Below, one piece after another: positions 2 to 46,939 of a stretch of DNA of 64,000 bases. Numbering within the stretch: position 1 is the stretch's first letter; the number at the start of each line of letters is the position of its first letter. The notes beneath the pieces were generated by a model. That model did no database searches and was not told the DNA's origin. It saw only the letters and a program-made list of their open reading frames with translations. The stretch spans positions 25,785 through 89,784 of the forward strand of contig JAFYAQ010000010.1 in NCBI GenBank assembly GCA_017540645.1. Direction: 5' to 3'. Both the position numbers and the translations under genes were made by a program. This stretch comes from Oscillospiraceae bacterium (GTDB taxonomy: Bacteria > Bacillota > Clostridia > Oscillospirales > Oscillospiraceae).

Positions 2-1564
2 TTGCCAGTTATGAAAAAACACGTGAGACGGCTCGTTTCCGCGCTGGCGGTCTATGTCGTTCTGCTGTTTCTGCTGCTCTCGGCGGAGTCGGCAGACCCG
101 TCGGCCACTATCCGCAGTTTCTGGGACGCCGTGTGGTTTTCCCTGATCACGATGACCACGGTGGGCTACGGCGATCTGGCGCCGGTCACCCTGTTCGGCC
201 GGGCGATCGGGCTGTTCTTCGCCCTGTGCAGCATCGGCCTGTTGGCGGCGCTGATCGGTGTCGGGGTCACCTTGCTGAGCGGAGAATTCCTGCCGCGGCT
301 GCGGCTGCGCCTTGGGAAAGCAAAGCGCTGGTATGCCTTTCAGGAGGAAAACGAGGATGCGGCGGCCCTGGCCCGGGCTCTGCGCGGCGAGGACGCGGAC
401 TGTCTGCTGATCTTCCCCGCCGGGGAAAAAAAGCTTGTAGAGGGCCCCGGGGTGGAGCGTCTTTCCTGGACGCCCACGGAGCTGGTCCGGCTTCGGGGCG
501 GGACAGCCGGTCTGTGGCTGTTCTTCCTGGGCCGGAAGTATTGGGAGAACATCAACGGGGCCCTGGCGGCCTGCCCGGCGGGCGCCGTCTGCGTGTGCAT
601 GGCGGAGTCTCCCGGAGATCGCTTCCCCGCCAACCTGGTGCAGTTCAGCCCTCTTGAAGCCATGAGCCGAAGCTACTGGAAAAACCATCCGCTCAAAGAG
701 CGGGAGAAGACCGTGCTGCTGTTGGGATGCGGCGCAGCCGGCGGCGCTCTCCTGGAGCGGGCGCTGATGACCAATGTGTTCCAGCGGGGGCGGAGCACCG
801 CCTACCATGTATTTGACGACACGGCGGATTTCGCCGCGCTGCACCCGGAAGTGGTGCGGGCGCTGTCCGGGGAACATCCGGGTGAGGACCGCCTGATCTT
901 TCATACGGAGAGCTGGGCGGAAGCCCGGAACCTCCTGCAGAAGGCAGACCGTATCATTTTGGCTTACGACGACGAGAAACGGAACTTTGAGATCCTGGAA
1001 AAGATCCGGACCTGGTTTGAGAATGAGCCGACGGTGCACGTTTATCTGTCCGGGCACGTGCCCGGGGTGGAGAGCTTCGGTGGCCGGGATGAGAGCATGC
1101 GGCCGGAGTTTGTGATGAAGGATGAGCTCAACCGCCGGGCACGCCTGATGAACGATATCTACAACGAGGACTCCGGCTCCCCCACCGCCTGGGAGGAACT
1201 GAGCGCTTTCCTGCGGCAGTCGAATATCGCGGCGGCAGACCATCTGATCGTCAAGGCCCGCTTTCTGCTCCGGGAGGAAGGTCTGACGGAGCTCAGTGCT
1301 TCGGACTGCCGGAGGGCCTATGCCCGGTATCGGGAGCTCTATCCGACCCAGGCCGATCTGCTGCAGGAGATGGAGCACAGGCGCTGGATGCGGTTTTATC
1401 AGATGTACAACTGGCAGTACGCTCCGGTCCGGGACAACGACCAGCGGCGGCATCCGATGCTGCGTCCCTATGAGGAGCTGAGTGAAGCGGACCGAAGGAA
1501 GGACGCCTATGCCTGGGAGATGCTGGGCCGGCTGGGCGAAGAGAGAAGCCGGGACCATTCTTGA
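2..1564 (+). CDS. Two-TM K+ channel (TVGYGD filter) fused to Rossmann/RCK-like region and a C-terminal RyR domain
   Basis: 520-aa ORF open to the window edge (TTG at 2, ATG at 11; true start uncertain). M1 helix LVSALAVYVVLLFLLL, pore helix plus selectivity filter TMTTVGYGD, M2 helix IGLFFALCSIGLLAALIGVGV. GxGxxG (LLLGCGAAGG) near aa 236. The C-terminus (LMNDIYNE..WEELSAFLRQSNIAAADHL and EHRRWMRFYQMYNWQYAP..RRHPMLRPYEELSEADRRKD) fits the RyR-repeat pattern of bacterial RyR-domain proteins. Confidence 0.8.
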   Translation: MPVMKKHVRRLVSALAVYVVLLFLLLSAESADPSATIRSFWDAVWFSLITMTTVGYGDLAPVTLFGRAIGLFFALCSIGLLAALIGVGVTLLSGEFLPRLRLRLGKAKRWYAFQEENEDAAALARALRGEDADCLLIFPAGEKKLVEGPGVERLSWTPTELVRLRGGTAGLWLFFLGRKYWENINGALAACPAGAVCVCMAESPGDRFPANLVQFSPLEAMSRSYWKNHPLKEREKTVLLLGCGAAGGALLERALMTNVFQRGRSTAYHVFDDTADFAALHPEVVRALSGEHPGEDRLIFHTESWAEARNLLQKADRIILAYDDEKRNFEILEKIRTWFENEPTVHVYLSGHVPGVESFGGRDESMRPEFVMKDELNRRARLMNDIYNEDSGSPTAWEELSAFLRQSNIAAADHLIVKARFLLREEGLTELSASDCRRAYARYRELYPTQADLLQEMEHRRWMRFYQMYNWQYAPVRDNDQRRHPMLRPYEELSEADRRKDAYAWEMLGRLGEERSRDHS

Positions 1565-1579
1565 AAGGAGCGTGAACCC

Positions 1580-4042
1580 ATGGAACGTTTATTGCAGAGG
1601 ATTGCTAGCTTGTTCTGCGCCTCCACCCTGATGCTGTCTATCAGCGGCAGGGCCTTTGCGCAGGATGACGAGCAGCCGTTGGATCCGCCGGCGGAGATCC
1701 GGGAGACCGCTTCGGGGGATGCTTTGGGTACGCCCGATGCATCGGAGGTCCCGGAGAAAACGGACAATACCGACGAAGCTTCCATGGCTTTGCTCGCCGC
1801 GCCACAAACCGATACGGGGCTGACAGATCCTGACGTGCAAACAGACGGCGAGCCGAAAAGCGGCGAGGCGGATCAGAGCGGCGAGACCCAGGCGACGCCG
1901 GAGATCACCGTTGCCGGGACCAGCTTCTCCCCCGATGAGAACTCGAGCGGAAGCGGCTGGAGCTACGAGGCGGACAGCCAGAGCATCGTGCTTGTCAACT
2001 ATGACGGCGCCCGGCAGAGCATTCTCTCCACGGCCAGCGACGTCACCATCAAGATGGCGGGCGTGAACCGCCTGGCCGAGCTCTCGGTCGACGGCAACAT
2101 CAATCTTGTCGGCACCGGTGTGCTGCTCGTCGACAAGATCGAGATGACGGAAAACATGGCCCTCAATCTCCAGTCCAACAAAGAGATCTACGGCGAGGAC
2201 GGGGGCAGCGTGGCGGTGTTCCTCCTGCAGGATGACAACAGCTACCTGCTCATCAACGGCAGCGTGGACGCGATCCTGGACGAAGCCTATACCCTTCCCC
2301 AGGACGTGACGCTGGTGGTGCCGGACGGCTCCCGGCTGGTGCTGCAGAGCCTTGCCGTCGGCTGTCTCCTCACAGAGAAAGAGGAGAAAGTGGTCCGTTA
2401 TTCCACGAATAATGAGGATGAGGTCATCGATCAGCTGCGCAGCTTCGTCGAAAGCGAAGACGGCGGCACTCTGGATGTAGGAAACATCGATTTCTATTCC
2501 ACCTCCGCCAAGCTCACGATCCCGCAGAAGACAAAGCTGGTGATCAGCGAGATGGCCTCTATCCTCATGAAAAGCGTTAGACCGCGAACCTTTTCCTTTA
2601 TCGCGCCGGTGCTCGATGTGCAGGGGACGCTGGAGCTGAACGGCTCCGTCACGGGAGAAAGCTGGTATCAAAGCTTTGTCGTCCTCAACAGCGATCTCAG
2701 CGGCGAGGGCACCATCAGCAAAGCAGAGGTAAGCGTGAATGTGCCCCAGGATGCTCTGACGGTGAACGACGTCAATCTCCGGCTCAACGCGGGAACATCG
2801 GCCGGCGCCGCGGCGGACGGGGAAGACCCGGACATAACTCCCGCGATCGGCACGCTGACCATGTCCGATACCAATGTGCTGTCATTCAACAACAGCGCCG
2901 TCGGGGAGCTCGTTCTGCAGGACGGCGCCTCGGTTGACCTCCGGCGCCATGAGGGTGCCGACGTCCTGGCTCTGGGACAGATCAGCGGCAGCGGGACGGT
3001 CGGTTACGACGACGGCTCCTTTGCTGTCGGTTCTGTCGGGGCCGGTATCGCCCAGGATTTCGGCACCACCGGGATAACGACGTGCGGAGACGTGACATAT
3101 ATCTCCGGTCCCGACGGAGCGGTCCCCATTCCCACGCAAACGCAGGGCGGAACAATCCCGGTCGTCAACGTTTCCTTCGTGCTTCAAAACGCCACGAGCT
3201 TGATGGGCGGCGGTGTGCACAGCATTGTCTCCGAAAGCGAGTCGCAGGATAGCGAAAGCATCACTCTCAGCGGCGATACCGTAAGCTTTGCCTCCCTGGT
3301 CCAGCAGCTGCTTCCGACCGGCAGCGCGACACAAACTGTGGAGGTCTATACGGTCGGCGTGGACGGGATACTGGCGACCATCAAGCTGAGTTCAAGGGAT
3401 GCGGACGACCAAACGGAGATCCCGGTCGCTTCGATCCGCCTGATCCGTACGGTGGAATCCACCACGGAAGATCTCGGTACCGGCGGCGGCGCCTCCACCT
3501 CTACCAACACGAGCTATACCGGCAGCGGTGTGCTCGGCGGTCCCGGCGCGGGTTCTGTTCCCGGCGGCACCCAGTTTCCGATCCTAAGAGGAGCCGGCAT
3601 CCACAGGACCCAGCCCAACGACGACGATCCATCCAATCACAGCGGCGGGCAGCAACTGGGGCAAACGAATACGGAGGCTGATCAGGGCCTGTCGGATGCG
3701 GATTTCTGGGTCGAGCCGGATGAGACGGGGACATGCTCCGTCCTCTGTGCCGTGGATGGGGAGGCGACCCTGAAGGCCCACGGCGGGGTGGCGTCGGTCA
3801 GCATGAGCTATACGCCGCCGGAGGGCAGCACGGCAAAGAGCTTCTATGTGGTTTTCCGGGACAGCAGCGGAACGCTCCGGGCCTTCCGGGCGAGCTACTC
3901 CCGGCTGAGATCCGAGCTGAGCTTTGAGGCAGAGTGTCTGGGCCGCTTTGTGGTCGTGGCCTTTGACTTTGACGGAGAGGTCTTCTCCGACGCTTTCTAT
4001 GAGGCGCTTGCGCAGCGGGAAGAGCTTTCGGCCCTCAGCTGA
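1580..4042 (+). CDS. Large secreted protein, no recognisable domain (orphan)
   Basis: 820-aa ORF with RBS AAAGGAG 10 nt upstream of the ATG. N-terminal signal-peptide-like segment (LFCASTLMLSISGRAFAQDD), then an acidic low-complexity region and long Gly/Ser/Thr/Val-rich repeats resembling beta-solenoid adhesins. No LPXTG motif or C-terminal TM helix seen. Confidence 0.7.
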   Translation: MERLLQRIASLFCASTLMLSISGRAFAQDDEQPLDPPAEIRETASGDALGTPDASEVPEKTDNTDEASMALLAAPQTDTGLTDPDVQTDGEPKSGEADQSGETQATPEITVAGTSFSPDENSSGSGWSYEADSQSIVLVNYDGARQSILSTASDVTIKMAGVNRLAELSVDGNINLVGTGVLLVDKIEMTENMALNLQSNKEIYGEDGGSVAVFLLQDDNSYLLINGSVDAILDEAYTLPQDVTLVVPDGSRLVLQSLAVGCLLTEKEEKVVRYSTNNEDEVIDQLRSFVESEDGGTLDVGNIDFYSTSAKLTIPQKTKLVISEMASILMKSVRPRTFSFIAPVLDVQGTLELNGSVTGESWYQSFVVLNSDLSGEGTISKAEVSVNVPQDALTVNDVNLRLNAGTSAGAAADGEDPDITPAIGTLTMSDTNVLSFNNSAVGELVLQDGASVDLRRHEGADVLALGQISGSGTVGYDDGSFAVGSVGAGIAQDFGTTGITTCGDVTYISGPDGAVPIPTQTQGGTIPVVNVSFVLQNATSLMGGGVHSIVSESESQDSESITLSGDTVSFASLVQQLLPTGSATQTVEVYTVGVDGILATIKLSSRDADDQTEIPVASIRLIRTVESTTEDLGTGGGASTSTNTSYTGSGVLGGPGAGSVPGGTQFPILRGAGIHRTQPNDDDPSNHSGGQQLGQTNTEADQGLSDADFWVEPDETGTCSVLCAVDGEATLKAHGGVASVSMSYTPPEGSTAKSFYVVFRDSSGTLRAFRASYSRLRSELSFEAECLGRFVVVAFDFDGEVFSDAFYEALAQREELSALS

Positions 4043-4081
4043 GCCATACAGAAAAAGCAAGATGAAAAGGGGGGTAAAGCC

Positions 4082-4927
4082 GTGGAACGCTTTGATATCT
4101 GCATTCTTTCCACCGGACCGGATGCGCCCTTCGCCCGAAAACTGGCAGAGAGCATCCGCCGCTACCGGCTCCCTTCGAACACGAAGCCGGCGGACCCCTC
4201 TCTTGACTACCGGCGGATCCTGCTCGACTGCCAGGACGAGCCCTTCGGCGAGGCGGTCCGCGTGCGGCTGGAAAACAGCCGGAATCTCGTGCTGCTCTGC
4301 TCGCCGAGAACGAAAAACGATCCGACGATCCACGCAAAGCTTGCCTCTTTCCGCGCCGGTCACGATCCGGAAAGGATCGTTCTCTGCATCGTGGAAGGCG
4401 AACCCGCGGATTCTTTTCCCGAGAGTTTCATTGAAAAGAAAACCGTGCAGCACATTCTGCCGGACATGAGCGTGGTCGAGCGGATCGAGACCATCGAGCC
4501 GGTCGCCGCCGACCTGCGCGGCGCCACCGAACGGATGCGCCGCACCGTGCTTCGCTACGAGACGGTGCGCATCACGGCTTCCGTCCTCGGCATGCACCCG
4601 GACGAGCTGGAGCAGCGTCACCGGAGCCGCCGGCGCCGGGCAGCCGCCGCGGCGCTGGCCGCGGTGGGCGTCGTATGCCTTGCCGCGGCGGGGATCTTCC
4701 TGCGCCTCGGTCTGATCGCAAGAGGCGAGGGAAGGATCGCCGAGGAACAGACGAAGCTGAGCCTCTCCATCGCTCACCGGACGATCGAAGAGCTGCCCGC
4801 CTCCTTTGCGGAGGATGAACAGGCTCTCGCCTATATCGACGAGGCGATCCAGAGCGCCCGCGAAGAGCTGGACGCGCTCGGCCTCGCAGACCGGATGGAC
4901 GAGGCGGAGACGGGAGGCGGCGCATGA
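4082..4927 (+). CDS. Membrane-anchored TIR-like protein (degenerate TIR, single TM, short coiled C-terminus)
   Basis: GTG start with AAGGGGGG 8 nt upstream. The N-terminus FDICILST..NLVLLCSPRTKNDPTIHAKLASF..RIVLCIVEG aligns block by block with the TIR of the next ORF, but lacks the Trp and Glu of the SxW..xE motif. Arg-rich stretch RHRSRRRR is followed by the TM helix AAAAALAAVGVVCLAAAGIFLRLGLI. Confidence 0.7.
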   Translation: MERFDICILSTGPDAPFARKLAESIRRYRLPSNTKPADPSLDYRRILLDCQDEPFGEAVRVRLENSRNLVLLCSPRTKNDPTIHAKLASFRAGHDPERIVLCIVEGEPADSFPESFIEKKTVQHILPDMSVVERIETIEPVAADLRGATERMRRTVLRYETVRITASVLGMHPDELEQRHRSRRRRAAAAALAAVGVVCLAAAGIFLRLGLIARGEGRIAEEQTKLSLSIAHRTIEELPASFAEDEQALAYIDEAIQSAREELDALGLADRMDEAETGGGA

Positions 4928-6981
4928 GCTTCCAATACGACTTCTTCCTCAGCTACCGCCACAAGCCTCTGGACGGGGAGATCACAAAAAAGGTCTTCAA
5001 TCTGGTGGAGAGCTATCACCTGCCCCGGGCCCTCCGGGCACAGGGCTGTGAGGACGTGCGCCGCGCCTTCCGGGATACGGAGGAGCTGCCCGTCAGCCGT
5101 ATCCTTACCGATACCATCGATCAGGCTCTCCGCTCCACCCGCTGCATGATCCTGATCTGTTCCGTCGACACGCCCAGTTCCGAATGGGTAGACCGTGAGG
5201 TCGCCACCTTCATTCGGCTCGGAAGGGCGGAGCACATCTATCCGCTGCTGATCTCGGGCGATCGTGAGCGTTCCTTCCCGGCCTCCCTGAAGCTGGTGCC
5301 CGACATCGAGAGCCGCATCATGGACATCCGGGTGCCGGACAACCCGGTCAAAAAGATGATGGCAAAGGCGGAGACGGAGCTTCTGCGCGCCATTGCGGAT
5401 GTTGCCGGCTGCACGGAAGCGGAGCTTTTGCGGGAACACAAGCTCCGGAAGAACCGCCGTTTTGCCTTCCGGGTCGCTGCGGGGGTCGGAGCCTTTGCGG
5501 CGGTGGCCGGGATCTCCCTGGGCCTGATGAATCTGGCACAGAGCTACCGCGACGCCGCACAGAAACGGGAAGCGGCTTCCATGCGCATCCTCAGTGAGCT
5601 GACCTATTCCCTGCCGGACCATTTGACCAATGTGCCGGGGGCTTACAGCCGCATCGCCGGGATCCTGGAGCGCAACACGGAGGACATCAACGCCATCATG
5701 CGCCTTTCTTCGGACCGGGACAGCGCAGAGCGGGAAGTCGCGGCCAACTATGAAAAGCTTGCCAACGCCAGCACGGTACTCGGCCGCTTCGACGCTGCCT
5801 TTGCCGCGCAGGAGAAGGCCATCCGGAGTATTGAAGAACTGCAGCTCCGAAATGTGGAAGGGAGCGAGGAGGCCCTCGCCTCGGCGTTTAACAATCTGGG
5901 CAATCTTTACATAAGCGCGGGGCGCTATGAGGATGCGGCGGAAGCCTATCGGCTCGCCATTGAGCGGCAGACGGCCTCCGGAGGAGACGAGCGGACCCTG
6001 GCCGAGTTTTATATGAACGCCGGCGCCAACGCCACCGAGCTGGGAAATATGGAGGAGGCCGAGCGCTGCTTTGACTCCTGCATCGCGCTGCTGACAAACA
6101 CGGGAGAGGATAAAGGCCTCGACATTGCGGCTCAGGTCCACCTGGACTACGGGGTCATGCTCCATCGGGAGGGAAAATACGCCGACGCGGAAGAGCATCT
6201 GCGCGAGGCCTGCCGTTCCTGTGAAAAACTGCTCGCGCAGGTCGATACCAGACAGTACAGGGCTTTATATGTGAAGGCAATGAGCATGCTGGCGGTCATC
6301 TTGACGGATGCGGGAAAGTTTGAAGAGGCAGATGAAAACTACTCCCTCGCCATCCAGAAGGCGGAGGAGCTGGCGCAGGATCAGGAAAATGCCGAATATC
6401 AGCGGAACCTGGCGCAGCTGTGCAACAATTTCGCGCTGAGTCTCAACATGCGCGGCGATTACCGGGGCGCCGACACGCTGTATGAGAGGGCTGCGGAGAT
6501 CAATCGTACGCTGGCGGAAAAAACCCTCGCCGCCTCCGACCGATCCGCAGCCGCCCTGTCCCTGCTGAATCTGGGGGAAAACGCCTTCAAGCTGGGAGAC
6601 TATTCGCGCTCACGATCCTGTTTTGAAGAGGGACTGCAAATCTATCAGGCGACGGCGGACAGTTTGGGCGAGTACGATCGGGCCCAGTATCTGGCGTGGC
6701 AGTGCTACTACCTTCTGATCCATCAGCGGGATCCTCTCGGGGCTTTTGACGTGGGCTATGCGGCCTATGAACTGCAGCCGAAAAACGCCCTTGTCATGCT
6801 GAACCTTGGCTACGCCTGTCTCTACTGCGGCTATGACGAGGATGCGGATGCGCTGATCGGCGCGGTCGCGTCCCTGGGCGAGGGACAGGTGGAAACGATC
6901 TGCCGCGATCTGGAGGCCCAGCAGGCGGCAGGACTGACATCCGATCATATCCCGGCCCTGCTGGAAATGCTCCGCGGCTGA
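4924..6981 (+). CDS. TIR domain - single TM - TPR repeat protein
   Basis: ATGA start/stop overlap with the upstream ORF, GGAGG RBS. Canonical TIR N-terminus YDFFLSYRHKPLDGE, CMILICSVDTPSSEWVDREVATF (SxW..xE motif, Glu92 = GAG 5197-5199) and IYPLLISGD. KLRKNRRFAFR then TM helix VAAGVGAFAAVAGISLGLM. About 430 aa of TPR-like repeats follow (ALASAFNNLGNLYISAGRYEDAAEAY, LAQLCNNFALSLNMRGDYRGADTLYERA and others). Confidence 0.85.
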   Translation: MSFQYDFFLSYRHKPLDGEITKKVFNLVESYHLPRALRAQGCEDVRRAFRDTEELPVSRILTDTIDQALRSTRCMILICSVDTPSSEWVDREVATFIRLGRAEHIYPLLISGDRERSFPASLKLVPDIESRIMDIRVPDNPVKKMMAKAETELLRAIADVAGCTEAELLREHKLRKNRRFAFRVAAGVGAFAAVAGISLGLMNLAQSYRDAAQKREAASMRILSELTYSLPDHLTNVPGAYSRIAGILERNTEDINAIMRLSSDRDSAEREVAANYEKLANASTVLGRFDAAFAAQEKAIRSIEELQLRNVEGSEEALASAFNNLGNLYISAGRYEDAAEAYRLAIERQTASGGDERTLAEFYMNAGANATELGNMEEAERCFDSCIALLTNTGEDKGLDIAAQVHLDYGVMLHREGKYADAEEHLREACRSCEKLLAQVDTRQYRALYVKAMSMLAVILTDAGKFEEADENYSLAIQKAEELAQDQENAEYQRNLAQLCNNFALSLNMRGDYRGADTLYERAAEINRTLAEKTLAASDRSAAALSLLNLGENAFKLGDYSRSRSCFEEGLQIYQATADSLGEYDRAQYLAWQCYYLLIHQRDPLGAFDVGYAAYELQPKNALVMLNLGYACLYCGYDEDADALIGAVASLGEGQVETICRDLEAQQAAGLTSDHIPALLEMLRG

Positions 6982-6993
6982 GAGACGACAAAA

Positions 6994-7026
6994 GGACGGG
7001 ACCGCGGAGTGCTCCGCGGTCCCGTT
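6994..7026 (+). terminator. GC-rich hairpin after the TIR-TPR gene
   Basis: ggacgggaccgcggag / ctccgcggtcccgt inverted repeat 13 nt after the stop. There is no strong U-tract. A second weaker hairpin with a T-run lies at about 7045-7080. Confidence 0.5.
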
Positions 7027-7115
7027 CGATCATCCAAAATCCGACTGTTTTCCATAAAGCGAAAACAGCCGGTTCTTTGATATTTATAAGGCGCCGGTCA
7101 GGTCGCGCCCGAGAA

Positions 7116-7940
7116 TCAGAGGAGTTTTTCCAGCGCCTCCACTACGTCCCGGAGGCATTCCCCGCAGCTCCCCAGGATCTGAACGCCGGGGGCATTGGCC
7201 ACCTCCGCCGCGGCTCCCCGGGGGGCGAAGGCGTGTCCGGCAGCCCGGAGCAGGGGCAGGTCATTCCAGCTGTCCCCCACGGCGGCCAGCCGGGGCCGCT
7301 CCACGCCCAGCATCCGGCAGAGCAGGGCCACCCCCTCCCCCTTGTCGCAGCCGGCCCGGACCACGTCCACCAGGGAGCCGGAGGGCACCGCCGTGCAGTC
7401 AAAGCCGCCCTCGTTGATCCAGGCTGCGGCGGCGTGGGCCAGGTCCGAGCGGCCCGAAAGGCTGCCGGGGAACACCAGCACGATCTTGTTCCAGTCCCCG
7501 GGGACGGATTCGACGGGCTGCTCCCGGATGAGCTCCCCCATCCGGCCCAGATGCTCCTCCACCGCCGCCGTCCGACGGACCACGAAGGCCCGGGAACCCC
7601 GGTGGATCTCCGCCCCGGCGTCGGGAAAGGCGGCCAGCACGGCCGGAAGCATCTGTCGGCTGCTCTCCGGCAGAAGGCTCTCCCGGAGAACGGTCCCGTC
7701 CCGGTCGGCGATCACCGCCCCGTTGCTGACGATCACCGGCGCGTTGTGGGGAAAAAACTCCCGGATGGAGAGATAGGAACAGAGATCCCGGCCCGTAGCG
7801 ATGGTAAATCGCCCGCCGCCGTCCATGAAGCGCTCCAGCGCCTCCCGGTCCGTCGGGGATATGGGCCCTGCTGAGCCCTCCGGCCGGAGGGTATCGTCGA
7901 AATCCGACACCAGGAGCCAGCCTGCAAATTTTCCCGTCAT
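7116..7940 (-). CDS. Cof-type HAD-IIB family hydrolase
   Basis: Start moved to MTGKFAGWLLVSDFDDTL (ATG at 7940, RBS GGAAAGGAG). HAD motif I DFDDT and C-terminal GDSWNDLPLL motif. Confidence 0.85.
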   Translation of the reverse strand: MTGKFAGWLLVSDFDDTLRPEGSAGPISPTDREALERFMDGGGRFTIATGRDLCSYLSIREFFPHNAPVIVSNGAVIADRDGTVLRESLLPESSRQMLPAVLAAFPDAGAEIHRGSRAFVVRRTAAVEEHLGRMGELIREQPVESVPGDWNKIVLVFPGSLSGRSDLAHAAAAWINEGGFDCTAVPSGSLVDVVRAGCDKGEGVALLCRMLGVERPRLAAVGDSWNDLPLLRAAGHAFAPRGAAAEVANAPGVQILGSCGECLRDVVEALEKLL

Positions 7941-8019
7941 TCCCCGCTCCTTTCCGGGCCGTGAACCAAAGCGTCCACGGCGGCGTCTAACCGATAGAAT
8001 ACGCATTTGGGAGGACCCC

Positions 8020-8793
8020 ATGAAGAAATCCGCTGTGATCGTCAACGATCTTTTCCTGGCAGGCGGCATCCTCTGCCTGCTGTTTTACTTTGCCTGCGGT
8101 CTTACGGTCCGCTTCGGCCAGTCGCTGCTGTTTCTCTGGCTGCTGCTGGGACTGGCGATGGTGGGCCGGTATTTTCTCTGGCGTTGGGCCTGGGCCAAGG
8201 GGCGGCCCGCCCCCTTCCCCCGCTGGCTGCTCATCCTCGAGCGGACGCTCATCTGCCTGGGTCTGGCGGTATTCCTCTACGGGGAGAGCTTCATCGTCTC
8301 CGCCGCCCTCCAGAGGGCCCCGGATGATCTGGACGCCCTGGTTGTCCTGGGGGCCCGGGTGAATGAGGACGGCCCCAGCGGCTCTCTCCGGGAGCGGATC
8401 GAAGCCGCCGAGGATTATCTCCGGCGCAACCCGGACACCCTGGCCGTGGCCTCCGGCGGTCAGGGGGAGGACGAGCCTATGAGCGAGGCCGCCTGCATCC
8501 GGGAGCGCCTGATCGCCGCGGGTATAGATCCCTCCCGCATTACCCTGGAGGATCGCTCCTCCAGCACGCTGGAAAATCTTTCCAACAGCTTCGCCCTCCT
8601 GCCGGAGGGGGTGCATACGGTGGGCATCGTCACCAACGATTTCCACGTCTTCCGGGCCCTGGCCCTGGGAAACAAGCTGGGGGGCTATGAGCTCAGCGGC
8701 GTCCCGGCCCGGTCCAGCGTCAGCGGCTTCATCCACTACGCCATGCGGGAGTTTTTCGCTTCCGCCGTGTTATTCCTGCAGGGTCATATCTGA
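8020..8793 (+). CDS. YdcF/ElyC/SanA (DUF218) family membrane protein
   Basis: Start at MKKSAVIV (ATG 8020). N-terminal TM helices, then the DUF218 pattern DALVVLGARVNEDGPSGSLRERI..ASGGQGEDEPMSEA..LEDRSSSTLENL. Confidence 0.8.
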   Translation: MKKSAVIVNDLFLAGGILCLLFYFACGLTVRFGQSLLFLWLLLGLAMVGRYFLWRWAWAKGRPAPFPRWLLILERTLICLGLAVFLYGESFIVSAALQRAPDDLDALVVLGARVNEDGPSGSLRERIEAAEDYLRRNPDTLAVASGGQGEDEPMSEAACIRERLIAAGIDPSRITLEDRSSSTLENLSNSFALLPEGVHTVGIVTNDFHVFRALALGNKLGGYELSGVPARSSVSGFIHYAMREFFASAVLFLQGHI

Positions 8794-40119: not shown

Positions 40120-40295
40120 CGTCAAAAGCAGACGCGGTTTCCCGCGTCTGTGAACGTGCTTCCGGTTCCGGCAGAAGCGCTGTCCCTCCCCCATGTATCT
40201 GACTGATCCCCTTTTCGGGGCTTCACAGTGACCGACTCGCCGGGAATTGCACCCGATTCCATGCTCCGCGCAAAGCGGACGGAGAGAGACATCCT
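40120..40295 (-). promoter_or_regulatory. Cobalamin riboswitch-like leader with intrinsic terminator
   Basis: Minus strand: GGAATCGGGTGCAATTCCCGGCGAGTCGGTCACTGTGAAG (core GGTG..AA..CC..ACTGT), B12-box-like AGTCAGATAC, then cagacgcgg gaaa ccgcgtctg + CTTTTG. It lies directly upstream of the cbiF stub. Confidence 0.6.
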
Positions 40296-40334
40296 TTTAT
40301 TTTTTTGCTATTGTAGCACAAGTAAACCCCTTTG

Positions 40335-41231
40335 TCATTCCTTTTCTTTCGCCGCTATTGTTTCTTTTGATTTGGAAATCGCAAGGATCATTATGGCCGC
40401 AAGGATCGCCGCGATACCAAATACCGCATGGATCGATAGTTGTTCGTTCAAGAGGCTTGCCCCAACGATAACGCTTGTGATAGGTTCCAGTGTACTGGCA
40501 ACAGCGGATGATTGCGCGTCTGTGTACTGCGTCCCAATGGCAAAGAACGCAGAGCCAAAAACGGCAATGACAAAATCGGAGAGCAACAGGACCAACCATC
40601 CGATGCCTGTCACCGATGTAGAAAAGCCGCGAGTGAATACGCCGTATACGGTGATCATAAAAAAGCTGCCTATACCAACGAAAAAAATAACCTGTCCGGA
40701 GTCGAGAGGAGAGAAGTCAGTTTTATTCAATATAACGATATAGCATCCCCATGTAATACTGGATAAAAATGCTATCAGCAGACCGACTAAGCTTATTTTT
40801 TGAGCCGGAGCCTCCAACATAAGAAAAATGCCGACTGTGCATAAAGCAACGCACAGCGCTTTTACTTTTGACAATCTCTCATGAAATACGACCATACAAA
40901 TAAGTACGACTACGATGGGATACATGAAATGGATCGTTGTCGAGATCCCTGTCGGTAAATACTTATAGGAGGAAAATAAAAGCATTGGCGTGGCCGTTCC
41001 GACCGATGTCAACGCAAGCAGTTTTTTCCAATGATACTTATAGCCCCTCCAATGCTTATCTGCCTTCAGTGCGGCGGGAATAAACGTCAACGATAATATG
41101 GCATACCTGAATAAGACGACAAGAGACGCTGTAACTCCCTGAGAATAGCAAAATGTAACGGCGCTCGGCATCAAGCCGAAAACCACTCCGGAGATCATCA
41201 CCATATACAGGCCTTTTTTGGATCTGCTCAT
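40335..41231 (-). CDS. DMT/EamA family transporter
   Basis: 298 aa, ten hydrophobic segments arranged as two EamA-like halves. Lower G+C than its surroundings. Confidence 0.8.
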   Translation of the reverse strand: MSRSKKGLYMVMISGVVFGLMPSAVTFCYSQGVTASLVVLFRYAILSLTFIPAALKADKHWRGYKYHWKKLLALTSVGTATPMLLFSSYKYLPTGISTTIHFMYPIVVVLICMVVFHERLSKVKALCVALCTVGIFLMLEAPAQKISLVGLLIAFLSSITWGCYIVILNKTDFSPLDSGQVIFFVGIGSFFMITVYGVFTRGFSTSVTGIGWLVLLLSDFVIAVFGSAFFAIGTQYTDAQSSAVASTLEPITSVIVGASLLNEQLSIHAVFGIAAILAAIMILAISKSKETIAAKEKE

Positions 41232-41469
41232 TCTGCGTTCCCCCCCCTTACCAGTAATAATTATTCATATAAATTACAAAGTGAGCCAACGGTTTTCCGT
41301 AAAGCATTAATAAATGTCGCTCCACAGCTTTCAACACAAAATGGCCCTGCAGAATAATTGCGGGGCCATTTGCACAGGGGTGGGAAAGGATCATTAACGG
41401 TGCCGCATTCCATAGGAGTGATCCATTGGGTCATACAAAATGGTCCTCTCAATCGCCAATACTTTCCAT

Positions 41470-42867
41470 TCACTTCTTTCTGGATCTAAACCAATAGAAC
41501 AGAGCCCCCATCAGCAGCCATATCACCAACATAATATATGATGGGGCCGTAAGGCATCCCGGCATTCCGGGAACCAACAGCATCATCAAAAAGAACACCG
41601 AGAATATCCCCCCAAGAACGGAGGTAAAGGCAAATCCTATGTGAGTCCTTATTTCGTGGTCCTTCTTCATCGTGAGGAACGCGCACAGGTTTGTATATCC
41701 ATATCCGACCGCAGCGCCAATGGCAGACATATCGACGAACCAGCCAAGGGCCGTTCTGCCAAACCATGGACCTACAGCAGAAAACAGAAAACAAAAAATG
41801 ATCGCATTTGCCGGCGTTTTGTATCTGTGATGGAGCTTGCCAAACCAGGCGGGGATCGTTCCTTCCCCCGCCATGAAAAACAGCAATCTGCTTGTTGCCG
41901 TCAAAAAGCCGAGCATGCCCGTTAGTATCGCGCAGGAAATCGCAACGCCGAGGACGACCAGCCCGGGTTTGCCCATCAAAGCCTCTACGGCAGCGCCGAC
42001 TGCCCAGTCGTGTTGATTTATGAAAGCCGTCCAATCCGGTGAAACAGACGCTGTCACAAGTGTGTTGCAGGAGTAAACCGCACACCCGAACAAAACAGCG
42101 ACTACCATAATGCCGATGACTTTTTTTGTTGAGAAGTTGAACTCCTCAACCTCTTGGGGTATTGTTCCAAACCCCACATAAGCCCAAGGAGTAACGGCAA
42201 TCACAGCAATGATCCCGCGAGCAACTTCTTTGAGGTCTGGATCCGCGGCGGTTCCCCAAAACGGTTTCAGATGCTCCCACGAAGTGATGGGGCTGAACAA
42301 TGCAGAAATAACAATGATCAGGAAAGAAGTTGCAAGCGCTACCGCCATGATCGTGTCCACAAAGCCGGCTTTTTGTGCGCCTATGATGCTGAGAAACGAC
42401 AAAATGCCAAGAGCTGCAATCCCCAGCAAAACCTCGCCCAAATAAATATCATATCCAGCTACCGAGTACATTTTCCCAAATTGAAAAACGCCAAAAAACA
42501 GCTTTCGACTCATAAGGCCCAATGCGGTAGAGTTCATCGGAGCATTGGTAAGGAAAGCCAGGGCAAGCAGCCACGCACACCAAAAAGCGTTTTTGGGACC
42601 TAACAGCAGTCTTGTATAAGTAAATTCACCTCCGCCCTGCGGATACTTTTTTACCATGTAGCTGTAGCTGAATGAAATGACGATCATAATGATCGCACCG
42701 ATCGCCATGGCAACGACCGTGCCCAACGTACCGGCTGTTGGCAGAAATGTGGTGCCCGGCATCATAAAAGCGCCCCACCCGATGATGCATCCAAACGCTA
42801 AAGACCACACGCTCAGAGGATTCAGACTTTTTTCAAAGCCGGAGTCATTTTTTATTTCTTCACTCAT
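41470..42867 (-). CDS. APC family amino acid permease
   Basis: 465 aa; SLAFGCIIGWGAFMMPG and a 12-TM layout. Confidence 0.8.
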   Translation of the reverse strand: MSEEIKNDSGFEKSLNPLSVWSLAFGCIIGWGAFMMPGTTFLPTAGTLGTVVAMAIGAIIMIVISFSYSYMVKKYPQGGGEFTYTRLLLGPKNAFWCAWLLALAFLTNAPMNSTALGLMSRKLFFGVFQFGKMYSVAGYDIYLGEVLLGIAALGILSFLSIIGAQKAGFVDTIMAVALATSFLIIVISALFSPITSWEHLKPFWGTAADPDLKEVARGIIAVIAVTPWAYVGFGTIPQEVEEFNFSTKKVIGIMVVAVLFGCAVYSCNTLVTASVSPDWTAFINQHDWAVGAAVEALMGKPGLVVLGVAISCAILTGMLGFLTATSRLLFFMAGEGTIPAWFGKLHHRYKTPANAIIFCFLFSAVGPWFGRTALGWFVDMSAIGAAVGYGYTNLCAFLTMKKDHEIRTHIGFAFTSVLGGIFSVFFLMMLLVPGMPGCLTAPSYIMLVIWLLMGALFYWFRSRKK

Positions 42868-43034
42868 GCATAATCTCCTATATAGCTCTATGATACGGAG
42901 CCTTGCGTTTTTATGGTTCCTTCGCCCTGAAAATATCGACTCATTTTAAAAACGCAAAAACTGGCCCGATCGGATCCTTTTTTGAACAAGCGGCGGCACA
43001 ACAAGATGTTGGCCGCCGCCTAACGGGTATGTAA

Positions 43035-44159
43035 TCAGTACCAATAGGGAGAATCCCAGAGTTTCAAATGTGTGCCGAGACCAAGTTTCATAGCCCTGTC
43101 ATAGCAGTCATACGACCAGGCGATATCTTCTGTGGGCATTCCTCCCGTCATAAGGCAAATTCGTTCTTCTTTGCTCTTTCTTCCGATGATCTTCCCGCAA
43201 GCACAGTCGCCAAGGCTGGGGATCTCCGCCGCCGGCGGCAGCTTGCCTTCGTCAATGAGCTTATAGATGCCGCCGCCCATCATGCCCTTATAGGCTTCTT
43301 CGATAGAGCAATTCGACCTTCTGGCATCATCCATATAAGCAACGTGCATTTTGGGATTATCGAAGAACGTAGAGCTGTTGACGTGATATGACTCATCGAT
43401 TCTTCCGGAGCCGGTAAAGATGATAAGCGAACCAGGCTTGAGCCATTCATCCCTGATTTCAACCGGTTTGAGCCGCGATGTAGCGGAAGAAATGATATCA
43501 GCACAAGAAATGGCGTCTGCCATCGTTTCACAGACCACATAGTCAAGGCCGTATGTTTCTTTTGCCCAACAGCCGAGTTTTTCGCCGGCTTCGGGATTGA
43601 GGTCAAAAATGCGGATGCACCTGGCGTTCTTTGCGGTGGCCATCATTCCCTGAAGGCAGGCTTTTTGGATAGGCCCGGCCCCGATAAGTCCGATGATCTC
43701 CGCATCGGGATTTGCCAAATACTTTACGCCAACGCCGGGAATGGCGCCGGTCCTGACGGCGCTGACAATGTTTGCCGAGCAGAGGGCGATCGGCTCACAA
43801 GTGTCAACATCGTTGAGCATGATCATCAGAATGCTGCGAGGAAGACCCCGGGCGGGGTTTGCCACATTGGACCCGTACCATTTTTCTCCGGCGACTTTGA
43901 ATCTGCCGCCGAGATAACCGACCATTGCCATAAAACGTCTGTCCGGTCCGGCTGCAGGCATCCCCTCAAACTCCGGGTGTTCCGGGAAATAAACCTTTAT
44001 GCCATGTTCGTTACCGTTGGGGCCTCCCATCAGGTAATCCCCCTGGCCGAGCAGCTTGAACATCTCATCCATCACTTCAACGCATCTCTCTGAATCCAGT
44101 GCGCCCGCTTGGATCATGTCCTGCTCGCTCAAATAGATAAAGTCAGTACGTTTTCCCAT
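43035..44159 (-). CDS. Ornithine cyclodeaminase / mu-crystallin family protein
   Basis: 374 aa; IGLIGAGPIQKACLQGM Rossmann motif and the OCD-family N-terminal pattern. Confidence 0.7.
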   Translation of the reverse strand: MGKRTDFIYLSEQDMIQAGALDSERCVEVMDEMFKLLGQGDYLMGGPNGNEHGIKVYFPEHPEFEGMPAAGPDRRFMAMVGYLGGRFKVAGEKWYGSNVANPARGLPRSILMIMLNDVDTCEPIALCSANIVSAVRTGAIPGVGVKYLANPDAEIIGLIGAGPIQKACLQGMMATAKNARCIRIFDLNPEAGEKLGCWAKETYGLDYVVCETMADAISCADIISSATSRLKPVEIRDEWLKPGSLIIFTGSGRIDESYHVNSSTFFDNPKMHVAYMDDARRSNCSIEEAYKGMMGGGIYKLIDEGKLPPAAEIPSLGDCACGKIIGRKSKEERICLMTGGMPTEDIAWSYDCYDRAMKLGLGTHLKLWDSPYWY

Positions 44160-44178
44160 TTTGTTCTCCTTTATGGTA

Positions 44179-45549
44179 TCACTTCTGTTTGATGGAATAC
44201 CATGTTCTGGTCAGAACAGGCAAAAGCGCAGCCACAACAGCGCCTACCGTGAAGAGGATCGTCATTCTTGTGATGCCGTATTGCGCAACCCAGATCGGGG
44301 CCATGGAAGTGATAACACCGCCGCCGGTCGCCCACGAAGAAAACGGCGCTCTGGCAGCATACATATCCAACGCATCAGACTTAGCCTCGGGATCGCATAC
44401 CTTCAGCAGCAGGATACCCGTTGCCGCTACGCCAGTGTAGGTACCGTACATCATCATTGCATTTTCAAACCAGGTATCGCCGAAGGCTCCGCGCGCATAC
44501 ACGAGAGCAAAGAACAGCATAAAGGCAAAGAGAGCGACACTGGTGATCAAAATCGGGAGCGCATAGTCGATCACGACGGAAACGTTAAGGGACGCGACGG
44601 CACCAGCGATCAAAAATTCAAGAGAAATACCCTGAATTCTGCTCATTACCCGCATATCCACTGCGTCGCCCCACTTGGTCTTGTTGAGAACAAGCTGAAG
44701 CAAGCCGCCCGCAAACATTGCCGTCACGAACCATGAAAGCGAGAAATTCAGATAAATCTTGAGCGCCCTGTTCATCAGATAACCCAGGAAGATCGCCACT
44801 CCAAGCAGCATGGCATGGAACGCGTAGTTATCAATGACCTGACCGGAAATCGAAAGAGTTGTGTCTACCGGTCGGTTTTCCGTGTACAATTCCTCTTCCT
44901 TGTTCTCAATTCCCACGGTCGTCCCGTTTGCCTTAAGGAATCTCGTCCATCCCTTGCGAACACCGATATTGATCAGGGTCACGCCGCCGAAAATACCGGC
45001 GACCAAGCCAACGGTCGCATTCGTCACGGCAATAGACTGGCCTTCAGCCCATCCGACCTCTTCAAACACAGCCAGCATACCAGAGGCAGTGCCATGGCCG
45101 CCGGCCCAGCCTTCCTCAAAGGTCGTGGCGAACAAGGGGTTGACCTTGAGCAGAGGAATAAACACAACAGCCGCGAGGATCAGGGGGATCGCGTATTGTG
45201 CGAAACAGCCGAGGTAAGCATAGCAGGTTGCGTTGAAGGTTTTTCTTGCAAACTGCTTCGCACTCCTTTTCTTTTTGCCCATCAACATGGGCGCAAATAC
45301 GATCACGATCAGCCGGCCGGAGAGGTTCGACCACGCAGATGTGATGTGCGCAGGAATAATGCCGAGGAAATACTTTCCGCAAAGCAAGCCGATAAAACCA
45401 GCAACAAGGGATGCCGGAATGTAATACTTTTTTAGAAACGGAACTTTTAAACGAAGGATCGTACCAATGACAAGTAGGATACTGAGCATCGCCAGATAAA
45501 ACAGCAACGCATCTTGGGTACCGCTGGATACTTCCGTTGTTGGTATCAT
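44179..45549 (-). CDS. GltS-type sodium/glutamate symporter family protein
   Basis: 456 aa; LLVIGTILRLKVPFLKKYYIPASLVAGFIGLL is the typical GltS N-terminus. Confidence 0.7.
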   Translation of the reverse strand: MIPTTEVSSGTQDALLFYLAMLSILLVIGTILRLKVPFLKKYYIPASLVAGFIGLLCGKYFLGIIPAHITSAWSNLSGRLIVIVFAPMLMGKKKRSAKQFARKTFNATCYAYLGCFAQYAIPLILAAVVFIPLLKVNPLFATTFEEGWAGGHGTASGMLAVFEEVGWAEGQSIAVTNATVGLVAGIFGGVTLINIGVRKGWTRFLKANGTTVGIENKEEELYTENRPVDTTLSISGQVIDNYAFHAMLLGVAIFLGYLMNRALKIYLNFSLSWFVTAMFAGGLLQLVLNKTKWGDAVDMRVMSRIQGISLEFLIAGAVASLNVSVVIDYALPILITSVALFAFMLFFALVYARGAFGDTWFENAMMMYGTYTGVAATGILLLKVCDPEAKSDALDMYAARAPFSSWATGGGVITSMAPIWVAQYGITRMTILFTVGAVVAALLPVLTRTWYSIKQK

Positions 45550-45767
45550 GATTTTTTCCCCTTTCTAAAATAGTCACAAGGCCCTTGTGTAGTACAAAAT
45601 AACACATTTATAGGTTCCTGTCAAGCTTTCCTCTATGTATTTTATTACAAAATAATTTATATTTAAGGGAAGCTCTGTTTTTTGCTTGTTTTCGGTTCCC
45701 CTTGCATTTTGTTGTGTCACGTTGTAAAATATTTTAGATAATTACTAAATATATCTTACAATTACTG

Positions 45768-46622
45768 ATGGTGCTTCCTATGACTATTCACCAGATAATA
45801 AAAGAAAAATTTCCCGATTTAACAAAGTCCGAGAGAAAAGTGGCTTCATTTTGTCTTGGCCATTTTGTTGATTTTTCTGTTTTGACACTTATTGAGCTGT
45901 CAAATTTGATTGGAACCAGTACGACCACTGTTATTCGGTTTTGCAATCATCTGGGGTTTGATAGTTTTAAAAACTTCCAGACTTGCCTTAAGAATGAAAT
46001 AAATATAATGCCCACTTTGAGCGAGCGCTTTCAACTCTCACTCAAAGTGGACGCCGACTCTGTTTTTACCAATACGATCAGTCACAGTGTCGAGTGTATT
46101 GAATCCACTTTCTCTTCCATAGACTTTGAGAAGATCGATCAGGTCGTTGATGAGATCAACCATGCAAGGCGCGTATTTCTTTTCGGTATGAAAGAATCAC
46201 AAGCCCTTGTTCATTACGCATACACCCGTCTATATGATATTCGCGGCGATGTATTTTTATTGGACTCTATTTACAGCGGCGACGCGGAGATCGCACTTGA
46301 TATTAATTCAAGTGATATTTGTATTGTTTTTCTTTTTCATCGATACACATATACTTCTGTAAAAACTCTTCCTTTCTTAAAGTCGCGAAATGCTAAGGTT
46401 GTTCTTATTACGAATTCTCCTTCGGAATCTATTGAACAATATGGAGATAGTGTCATTTGCTGTGATGTGAGCGGTATCGGAATAAAGAACTGTTATGCTG
46501 CTCCGATCTGTCTTTGCGACTGTATTGGGAACAAGCTGGCCTCCTTAAATCCGGAAAAGGTGCAAAACCGTACAAATGAGCTTGAATTATTATATAAGAA
46601 CTATTCTTTTTTAGGCAGTTAA
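45768..46622 (+). CDS. MurR/RpiR family transcriptional regulator
   Basis: HTH_6 N-terminus (LTKSERKVASFCL..LIELSNLIGTSTTTVIRFCNHLGF) followed by a SIS domain. The start could be ATG 45768 or 45780. Confidence 0.85.
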   Translation: MVLPMTIHQIIKEKFPDLTKSERKVASFCLGHFVDFSVLTLIELSNLIGTSTTTVIRFCNHLGFDSFKNFQTCLKNEINIMPTLSERFQLSLKVDADSVFTNTISHSVECIESTFSSIDFEKIDQVVDEINHARRVFLFGMKESQALVHYAYTRLYDIRGDVFLLDSIYSGDAEIALDINSSDICIVFLFHRYTYTSVKTLPFLKSRNAKVVLITNSPSESIEQYGDSVICCDVSGIGIKNCYAAPICLCDCIGNKLASLNPEKVQNRTNELELLYKNYSFLGS

Positions 46623-46834
46623 CGATATCTTAGTTAAAAGGATAATTGCTGACCATTAAGAATCATTCTTCTTCCGTGTAAAAACCACCTATATGCATCT
46701 GTCCCAGAGAAAGGCCTCCCTCTCCCCCCGCCGCGCAGTTCTTGGATTACGTCCTTGACAGCCGCTGGCACGGAAATATCTTCCCCTGCGATACTATGCC
46801 GCAACCCTGGTATGGCTTTCTTGTCTTTATAAAG

Positions 46835-46881
46835 GCCCAGGCGCCATGTCCGCTCAACGGGAGCGGACATGGCGCCTGGGC
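46835..46881 (-). terminator. 21-bp perfect hairpin downstream of tRNA-Arg
   Basis: gcccaggcgccatgtccgctc aacgg gagcggacatggcgcctgggc; followed on the minus strand by cTTTaTaaag. Confidence 0.5.
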
Positions 46882-46939
46882 TACTGCTCGGTGCATACGG
46901 CCAAAAAGGGAGAGCCGCCTGATGGCGGCCCTCTATTAT

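Follow-up and report, generated by a model that had tools for sequence, protein, structure and literature searches.

A tightly coupled gene pair for predicted membrane TIR proteins, one with and one without the catalytic motif, in a rumen Oscillospiraceae genome

Why would a bacterium keep two adjacent genes for proteins with a TIR (Toll/interleukin-1 receptor) domain when only one of them retains the catalytic residues? The question is raised by a 64,000-nucleotide stretch of DNA (the window) from a rumen Oscillospiraceae genome, in which two overlapping open reading frames on the plus strand, ORF1 and ORF2, each encode an N-terminal TIR-like domain and a single hydrophobic helix, followed in ORF2 by an array of tetratricopeptide repeats (TPR). 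The present picture of TIR proteins in bacteria is one of soluble enzymes directed against phage or of virulence factors that are secreted. According to a recent E. coli survey, the hallmarks of Toll-like receptors, namely membrane anchoring, repeat ectodomains and heterodimerisation, are seemingly missing from bacterial TIR systems (PMC11350192). The comparisons described here make it likely that the two genes encode a membrane-anchored pair of one live and one dead TIR protein. We also lean toward a heteromer of the two chains, and the explanation that we marginally favour as a whole is that of a co-translated membrane pair forming a heteromeric receptor, with ORF2 as the live subunit and ORF1 as a pseudoenzyme. 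The parts of the pair are as follows.

4066..4074, plus strand: ribosome-binding site of ORF1, AAGGGGGG-like, 8 nucleotides before the GTG at 4082 (read from the sequence)
4082..4927, plus strand: ORF1, GTG start, 281 amino acids; predicted single-pass membrane protein, putatively dead TIR paralogue
4082..4522, plus strand: ORF1 TIR-like domain, residues 1-147 (AlphaFold2, Foldseek, family comparison)
4325..4339, plus strand: ORF1 codons Thr82 to Lys86, at the positions of the Trp and the catalytic Glu (codons and hhalign)
4646..4708, plus strand: ORF1 predicted membrane helix, residues 189-209, with RHRSRRRR before it (Kyte-Doolittle peak)
4709..4924, plus strand: ORF1 helical stalk, residues 210-281, predicted to be extracytoplasmic (hhalign homology to the post-helix segment of ORF2)
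4924..4927, plus strand: ATGA start/stop overlap of ORF1 and ORF2 (read from the sequence)
4924..6981, plus strand: ORF2, ATG start, 685 amino acids; TIR, predicted membrane helix and TPR protein
4924..5343, plus strand: ORF2 TIR domain, residues 1-140, with intact pocket (TIR_2, ThsB_TIR, motif conservation)
5197..5199, plus strand: Glu92 codon GAG, presumed catalytic glutamate (codon, conservation, PDB alignment)
5473..5535, plus strand: ORF2 predicted membrane helix, residues 184-204, with KLRKNRRFAFR before it (Kyte-Doolittle peak)
5536..5703, plus strand: ORF2 juxtamembrane stalk, residues 205-260 (column conservation)
5704..6978, plus strand: ORF2 TPR solenoid, residues 261-685, predicted to lie outside the cytoplasmic membrane (Pfam, AlphaFold2, Foldseek)

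A first-pass annotation of the window had described ORF1 and ORF2 as tandem TIR paralogues with N-terminal domains that align block by block, and this alignment is recovered by BLASTP (E 2e-8, 24% identity over 179 amino acids). Comparison by hhalign of family alignments, built from 66 ORF1 and 65 ORF2 orthologues, confirms the paralogy with a probability of 99.3% and an E value of 4.5e-20 over 248 aligned columns. The match runs from the TIR core through the helical linker and the hydrophobic helix to some 50 residues past the helix, reaching ORF1 residue 263, and it places K86 of ORF1 opposite E92 of ORF2 and T82 opposite W88. ORF2 scores above the Pfam cutoffs both for TIR_2 (PF13676, 29.1 bits, cutoff 28) and for ThsB_TIR (PF08937, 26.9 bits, cutoff 21.2), and the TIR scores of its orthologues and distant relatives exceed its own, up to E 1e-13. 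ORF1 remains below both cutoffs (TIR_2 14.4 bits, E 0.056; ThsB_TIR 13.1 bits), and a precomputed TIR_2 match is present in one of the 120 ORF1 orthologues listed.

Structure prediction was carried out with AlphaFold2 on each protein as a single chain. The model of ORF1 has a mean predicted local distance difference test score (pLDDT) of 82 and displays the strand/helix alternation of a TIR domain, with an extra beta-hairpin at residues 118-138 and a single long helix from residue 173 to 241. When this model was compared with the PDB by Foldseek, the top matches were mostly TIR domains (BCAP, RUN1, RPS4, MAL, SPARTA, BtTir, AbTir), at a probability of about 1.0, modest E values of ~1e-3 to 1e-2 and target-normalised TM-scores (TMt) of ~0.4-0.55. 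RPS4 and the RPS4/RRS1 TIR heterodimer are among the matches, together with a few flavodoxin-like domains. Because ORF1 aligns to the ORF2 family in hhalign and its Foldseek matches are mostly TIR, we regard it as a TIR homologue with a flavodoxin-like fold of five strands; the profile comparison, the model and the structural matches all uphold the TIR fold that had been assumed for it.

The tandem arrangement should not be read as a recent duplication. In BLASTP searches ORF1 is closer to the distant TIR-helix-propeller protein P0300 (E 4e-26) than to ORF2, and it retains the linker motifs EPVAADLR and LGxxPDxLEQR of propeller-type relatives. A recent tandem duplication is therefore rejected; the paralogy itself stands. 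ORF1 is an old, divergent and truncated member of a family of TIR-helix-repeat proteins, introduced further below, and no fresh copy of ORF2.

The catalytic pocket is where the two chains part. ORF2 contains the motifs YDFFLSYRH, FRDTEEL and S86-x-W88-x-D-R-E92, in which Ser86 is encoded by TCC (5179-5181), Trp88 by TGG (5185-5187) and Glu92 by the GAG codon at 5197-5199 that the first-pass annotation had named. S86, W88, D90, R91 and E92 are invariant in 65 of 65 ORF2 orthologues. In a PDB profile search, the segment SsEWidRE of the ORF2 profile is aligned with SKQWPARE of Brucella TcpB/BtpA (E 0.005). This glutamate is required for NAD+ hydrolysis (NADase activity) by BtpA, SARM1, plant TIR proteins and AbTir, and the tryptophan of the motif matters for making cyclic ADP-ribose isomers. 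Since the NADase glutamate is kept, the TIR domain of ORF2 probably acts as an enzyme and not as an adaptor platform.

The sequence signature by which a catalytic TIR domain is recognised, a third-helix glutamate in a Ser-x-Trp context, is found in ORF2 and lacking in ORF1. As had been noted, ORF1 has a threonine in place of the tryptophan (Thr82, ACG, 4325-4327) and a lysine in place of the glutamate (Lys86, AAG, 4337-4339). The loss extends throughout its family (66/66): the column of E92 holds Arg in 35 and Lys in 31 of the 66 ORF1 sequences and is never acidic, and that of W88 varies between Val, Ala, Gly and Thr. We also scored ORF1 at 33 positions that are nearly invariant across distant TIR-helix-repeat family members, 14 of which it retains. 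The positions lost are those of SYRH in the first strand, of E29, of the loop with FRDxEEL and of the SxW...E helix; those retained belong to the core and to the GEPxxSFP motif. The mean column identity is 64% in both the ORF1 and the ORF2 alignment, and ORF1 is thus under purifying selection and as well conserved as ORF2. Loss of the pocket combined with a scaffold kept under purifying selection matches the look of a pseudoenzyme partner, and ORF1 is best described as a putative pseudoenzyme that has kept its scaffold motifs and lost every pocket motif.

Both proteins contain an Arg/Lys-rich stretch (RHRSRRRR in ORF1, KLRKNRRFAFR in ORF2) before one hydrophobic helix, in agreement with the first description. 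Taking the classical Kyte-Doolittle threshold of 1.6 as the limit for a hydrophobic peak, we find the peak at residues 189-207 of ORF1 (2.5), where it is the sole one, and at residues 184-202 of ORF2 (2.0). The segment exceeds the threshold in 131 of 131 orthologues; ORF1 has no other peak of this kind, in ORF2 none is ever stronger, and the hydrophobicity of the segment is better conserved than its sequence. Over 15 residues the orthologues carry about 6 Lys and Arg before the helix and 2.4-3.3 after it, the N-terminal flank being the richer one in every case (66/66 ORF1, 65/65 ORF2). A signal peptide was found in neither ORF1 nor ORF2. In the AlphaFold2 model of ORF2 the TIR domain occupies residues 1-165, and the helix at 181-236 has low confidence and packs against nothing. 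Because the basic flank is N-terminal, a signal peptide is lacking and the NAD+ substrate is cytoplasmic, the N-terminus is predicted to be cytoplasmic, with the TIR domain inside and the TPR array outside. The charge bias and the single helix thus support the orientation that had been proposed, which stays a prediction from hydrophobicity and charge.

The C-terminal part of ORF2 consists of TPR units, as first supposed, with Pfam matches to TPR_12 (E 4e-24) and TPR_10 (E 3e-22) over approximately residues 270-600. In the AlphaFold2 model residues 240-685 are helical throughout and form a solenoid whose pLDDT mostly exceeds 90 past about residue 290; by Foldseek this solenoid resembles the TPR superhelices of LGN/Pins and OGT. 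Conservation is uneven along the protein: the mean frequency of the majority residue is 0.83 in the TIR core and the stalk, the most conserved parts, and 0.63 in the TPR array, the least conserved. The FxsC TIR-like/TPR family (NCBIfam NF040588) was considered as a possible assignment and rejected, since ORF2 reaches 17.8 bits against a cutoff of 130.

The pair was followed through other genomes in a survey of one genome per species, which gave 69 loci, all from metagenome-assembled genomes of the ruminant or horse gut. They are labelled Oscillospiraceae, Ruminococcaceae or Candidatus Limivicinus, and some bear other names, for instance Mogibacterium or Solobacterium. ORF2 directly follows ORF1 in all 69. 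The translational coupling suggested by the ATGA overlap is borne out, since the spacing between the ORF1 stop and the ORF2 start lies between -14 and +2 nucleotides in 68 of 68 species; 25 have ATGA overlaps and 31 have 2-nucleotide gaps (TGAnnATG), and in the loci inspected GGAGG is present upstream of the ORF2 start. Such tight and conserved start/stop coupling argues for co-translation of ORF1 and ORF2 in fixed proportion, as might be expected of subunits of one complex, and is no proof that they associate.

In several metagenome contigs, among them L002 (1215-3161), L004 (6843-8925) and L006 (6001-8071), the ORF2 orthologue is split into a TIR-helix part of about 300 amino acids and a TPR part of about 320. 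The genes past the split in L004 lie 13 bp later than in L003 and L005, which have an identical ORF1, so that a 13-bp insertion may be the cause. The split orthologues may be frameshift errors, pseudogenes or natural splits.

How far does this architecture extend beyond the clade? A profile of ORF2 residues 1-225 was searched against 1.84 billion representative proteins and gave 12,811 matches at E<=1e-3, of which 745 reach E<=1e-30; most of the best 150 run through the linker and the helix. As defined here, a family member has an N-terminal TIR domain containing the motifs SYRH, FRDxEEL, SxWxxxE and GEPxxSFP; after this come a helical linker, a basic stretch and a single membrane helix, and TPR or a beta-propeller completes the chain. 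ORF2 has all of these features; ORF1 belongs to the family by homology, without the pocket motifs and the repeat domain. The C-termini of the matches are TPR, beta-propellers of WD40, PQQ-like or PD40 type, repeats without a Pfam match, or nothing recognisable. A hydrophobic peak is found in 133 of the 141 representatives long enough to judge; among these 133 the basic side is N-terminal in 129 and a second peak is missing in 122. Of the 146 closest representatives, 141-144 retain S, W and E. Members come from Firmicutes, Fibrobacterota, Proteobacteria, Verrucomicrobiota and Methylomirabilota.

The TIR-helix-repeat proteins are thus a large family, widespread across phyla and apparently uncharacterised. 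A full-text literature search returned no paper on bacterial TIR-helix-repeat receptors or on the Oscillospiraceae pair, though others may exist outside that search. The inverted Toll-like topology to which the first-pass annotation had drawn attention is predicted for this locus, but it is not special to it. What appears to be specific to this Oscillospiraceae clade is the dead partner. In 11 distant loci (Proteobacteria, Verrucomicrobiota and other phyla) and one propeller-type Firmicute we found a single TIR gene and no dead partner, and the distant TIR genes of the family stand alone among housekeeping genes in the loci examined. Single-gene TIR-helix relatives in loci L076-L086 come from Sphingomonadales, Chthoniobacterales, Methylomirabilia and Betaproteobacteria, two-membrane bacteria in which the C-terminal domain would be periplasmic.

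Several known systems combine TIR chains in comparable ways. SARM1 is a TIR NADase that needs TIR-TIR assembly and is restrained by other parts of its complex; it is a homo-octamer with ARM and SAM domains and, unlike the pair described here, has no ectodomain. With plant RPS4/RRS1 the pair shares adjacent TIR genes, and the plant heteromer contains a signalling-competent and a regulatory chain. Those proteins are cytoplasmic NLRs with NB-ARC and leucine-rich repeat (LRR) domains, whereas ORF1 and ORF2 lack an NTPase domain and are predicted to be membrane-bound. The resemblance to Toll-like and interleukin-1 (IL-1) receptors lies in paired-chain signalling, the IL-1 receptor family working as heterodimers with an accessory chain (PMC7075850). 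The pair, however, has the reverse orientation, with an N-terminal TIR domain predicted to be inside and C-terminal repeats predicted to be outside; these repeats are TPR and not LRR or immunoglobulin (Ig) domains, ORF2 keeps the NADase glutamate, and apart from the TIR fold nothing points to common descent. The pair is accordingly no member of that receptor class, which consists of type I chains with N-terminal LRR or Ig domains and a C-terminal TIR domain; with the domain order reversed and a TPR ectodomain, the resemblance is one of logic and not of membership.

A striking parallel to a dead TIR chain beside an active one is a two-gene operon of Bacillus cereus, in which BcTir, a naturally inactive TIR protein with a Glu-to-Lys change, binds BcTpr, a partner with a catalytic Glu and C-terminal TPR (bioRxiv 10.1101/2023.05.26.542521). 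The architecture, TIR plus CMP-hydrolase-TPR, was called type VIII Thoeris in a later preprint (bioRxiv 10.64898/2025.12.03.692087). The likeness to ORF1 and ORF2 consists in a Glu-to-Lys TIR protein together with an active, TPR-bearing partner. The catalytic domain of BcTpr is MilB/CMP-hydrolase-like and not a TIR domain, the system is soluble and neither protein has a membrane helix as described in the preprint, and a sequence relation to our pair beyond the TIR and TPR folds is not detectable. Since Pfam and PDB alignment both identify a TIR domain at the N-terminus of ORF2, and since both proteins have a predicted membrane helix, the pair was not assigned to the BcTir/BcTpr type.

What the pair could sense and act upon is suggested by its neighbours, which formed no part of the first description and are listed here.

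11..1564, plus strand: K+ channel gene (Pfam Ion_trans_2 and RyR; PDB profile search)
1580..4042, plus strand: gene for a secreted 820-amino-acid protein with a Sec signal peptide (signal peptide; synteny)
6996..7025, no strand: GC-rich hairpin, a 13-bp perfect palindrome, 15 nucleotides past the ORF2 stop

The two same-strand genes precede the TIR pair with gaps of 15 and 39 nucleotides. Within the operon stretch of the window no convincing terminator was found before 6996, and the hairpin at that position is probably the operon end, common to ORF2 and to a converging HAD hydrolase gene (7116-8069, minus strand). A second hairpin lies at 7045-7068, between the ORF2 stop and the hydrolase gene; together the two hairpins probably form a two-way terminator. 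The channel gene is probably the first operon gene visible in the window.

The channel has a two-helix pore with a TTVGYGD filter, a cytoplasmic region of about 350 amino acids with a GxGxxG-like segment, and a C-terminal RyR repeat. Pfam assigns Ion_trans_2 (E 9e-15) and RyR (E 1.3e-7), and the PDB profile search returns KvAP (5e-20) and the RyR1 repeats (1e-15 to 8e-17). Among 35 species loci with at least 9 kb of upstream sequence, the channel gene is found at most 10 kb from the TIR pair in 21, and five loci have it directly, or nearly so, upstream of ORF1. The gene before it is usually chanA, a paralogue of the channel whose stop overlaps the channel start. The chanA product is a membrane protein of about 630 amino acids with 4-5 helices, Rossmann-like segments and a RyR-like end (for example 2048-3973 in locus L007, with equivalents in ~30 loci); in the present genome chanA would lie just before base 1 of the window. 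No recognisable K+ pore was found in chanA, though the cytoplasmic Rossmann-like/RyR-like part of the channel is common to both, and channel and chanA together resemble another pair of paralogues, one live and one altered, within the operon. For the nucleotide-binding part, the chanA match to NAD_binding_7 (E 0.0011) is near threshold, and a search for an RCK/KTN domain in the channel, by Pfam on eight homologues and by PDB profile search, gave only sub-threshold matches to TrkA_N (E 0.92) and NAD_binding_7 (0.28), so that the Rossmann assignment stays a lead.

The channel family adjoins TIR genes in three distinct arrangements. Besides the main clade, locus L020 (17219-20844) has a second channel paralogue followed directly by a TIR-helix-beta-propeller gene, with no dead partner between them, and in L094 chanA is followed by a channel that is only 34% identical and then by a TIR-helix gene. 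These three independent arrangements suggest the channel as a possible downstream target. A metagenome scan centred on the channel retrieved five full-length relatives, among which L094 has the TIR gene directly downstream and L092 has none; the other 75 matches are generic K+ pores.

The secreted protein encoded between the channel and ORF1 has no known domain, and searches of Pfam, NCBIfam, PADLOC and the PDB sequences returned no match. Most loci have it in synteny, but at an identity of just 27-32%, against 50-72% for ORF1 and ORF2 in the same comparisons; a signal peptide and a moderately conserved C-terminal domain of about 100 amino acids are the only parts kept. Its copy number varies, the gene being sometimes triplicated or moved downstream of ORF2.

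In view of the above, a mechanism can be considered in which heteromer formation, catalysis, ligand and channel coupling are the parts that we infer. Contacts between the homologous helices and stalks would hold ORF1 and ORF2 together as a heteromeric membrane receptor. The TPR array would bind something outside the membrane, for which the fast-evolving, co-encoded secreted protein is a candidate ligand. TIR NADase sites need TIR-TIR assembly, a neighbouring TIR domain completing the site, as is the case in SARM1, plant TIR proteins and AbTir. Because assembly is needed, ligand binding that alters the packing of the cytoplasmic TIR domains could switch the activity of ORF2, and because the neighbour completes the site, a dead partner could block or template it; ORF1 would then serve to restrain or to template the live subunit. 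As output, NAD+ would be consumed locally or a nucleotide derived from ADP-ribose would be made. Among candidate targets the K+ channel pair of the operon comes first, and it may respond via its Rossmann-like and RyR-repeat cytoplasmic domains, a coupling that we put forward only tentatively. The full outside-in chain is a doubtful proposition: a TPR receptor tuned by a dead TIR chain and perhaps by a secreted ligand, of which the NAD+-derived product of a membrane-tethered TIR cyclase, or a local fall in NAD+, gates the K+ channel pair, all in the service of physiology or cell-to-cell sensing and not of phage defence.

Several observations weigh against this explanation. Concerning the membrane, the topology is based on Kyte-Doolittle hydrophobicity and charge counts only, the ORF2 helix is Ala/Gly-rich and moderately hydrophobic (2.0; +1.4 kcal/mol by a simple biological-scale sum), and repeats of the TPR_12/TPR_10 type are more familiar from cytoplasmic proteins. 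Concerning the channel, it is near the pair in only about 60% of the loci with enough flank, the Rossmann assignment of channel and chanA is below the Pfam cutoff, the distant channel in L092 lacks any TIR neighbour, and no channel was found near the TIR gene in the 11 distant loci and the propeller-type one mentioned above. Synteny within a single bacterial family can, moreover, stem from shared ancestry alone.

An alternative is that the locus is a Thoeris-type anti-phage system acting by abortive infection, in which phage would be detected at the surface, for example by guarding a phage receptor, a part that the variable secreted protein might play, and a nucleotide signal would open the K+ channel so that the membrane potential collapses. 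ORF2 does score above the ThsB_TIR cutoff and shares the Ser-x-Trp...Glu helix motif with Thoeris ThsB, AbTir and BtpA/TcpB, PADLOC returns weak TIR matches, and the secreted neighbour evolves fast and varies in copy number in an arms-race-like manner. Recently described Thoeris types also have membrane-spanning effectors (bioRxiv 10.64898/2025.12.03.692087). The PADLOC matches to ThsB are marginal, however (E 0.018 for ORF1, which has no other, and ~0.009 for a relative), none is convincing, and for channel and chanA there was no match at all. Thoeris systems are found in defence islands with an adjoining ThsA-type effector; the pair lacks that context, and neither a ThsA-type SIR2/SLOG or Macro effector nor any other known Thoeris effector domain was found in the window or near the pair in the 69 species loci, for which reason we do not class it as Thoeris. 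ThsB, AbTir and BtpA/TcpB are soluble, unlike the pair with its predicted membrane anchor, outside domain, dead paralogue and vertical inheritance. The pair is conserved at 45-78% identity over the 69 species of one clade, with housekeeping neighbours and neither a patchy distribution nor a place in defence islands, and one distant member of the family lies among the genes for Rho, RF-1 and ThrRS. The module is thus vertically inherited and lies outside defence islands. Because of this inheritance and these neighbours, the evidence points to a role in ordinary physiology or environmental sensing over one as a mobile defence system, and we hold the anti-phage explanation to be unlikely.

It could also be that no signal is transmitted: ORF1 may be a decoy or antitoxin-like inhibitor that silences a potentially toxic NADase of ORF2, or both TIR domains may be scaffolds and the TPR array a device to dock or assemble the secreted surface protein. 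The secreted protein is syntenic with the pair, and the sole part of it that is conserved, besides the signal peptide, is a C-terminal domain that could fit a TPR groove. Many TIR domains are purely scaffolds (PMC7075850), and BcTir/BcTpr gives a natural example of an inactive Glu-to-Lys TIR protein bound to an active partner (bioRxiv 10.1101/2023.05.26.542521). The absolute conservation of S86, W88, D90, R91 and E92 in ORF2 and the retention of the motif family-wide are nevertheless hard to square with a pure scaffold. Docking fits poorly with several loci that lack the secreted protein between channel and ORF1, or have it elsewhere, whereas the TIR pair never separates. Inhibition or scaffolding without signalling therefore seems improbable. 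A third option, in which the hydrophobic segment is peripheral or does not cross the membrane and TIR and TPR are both cytoplasmic as in soluble TIR-TPR defence proteins, would suit the Ala/Gly-rich, marginally hydrophobic segment of ORF2, its low confidence in AlphaFold2 and the fact that cytosolic TIR-TPR proteins are common, but is very unlikely given that the segment exceeds 1.6 in all 131 orthologues, has ~6 Lys/Arg before it against 2-3 after it like signal-anchor sequences, recurs in this pattern in 129 of 133 distant relatives, and is hydrophobic in a way that is conserved beyond sequence.

If the preferred explanation of a live/dead membrane receptor holds, bacterial TIR enzymes would act as transmembrane receptors, with NAD-derived signalling tied to K+ flux. 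The TIR-helix-repeat family, present in several phyla, shows all three hallmarks of Toll-like receptors on paper, and a function would follow for thousands of proteins that are labelled only 'TPR repeat protein' or 'TIR domain-containing protein'. The locus is a clean experimental case, with an invariant catalytic chain, an obligatory dead chain, a candidate ligand gene and a candidate ion-channel output, and the pair may serve as a testable bacterial counterpart of a Toll-like receptor with its accessory chain. Were the outside-in chain true as well, it would be a bacterial counterpart of Toll-like receptor sensing and of ion-channel control by cyclic ADP-ribose.

Elsewhere in the window, a low-GC stretch at about 40200-47000 (47-50% against ~62% elsewhere) adjoins a tRNA-Arg(CCT) gene at 46940-47016. 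The proteins encoded there are an EamA transporter, an amino-acid permease, an ornithine cyclodeaminase, a glutamate symporter-like protein and an RpiR regulator, and the stretch looks like an acquired metabolic island.

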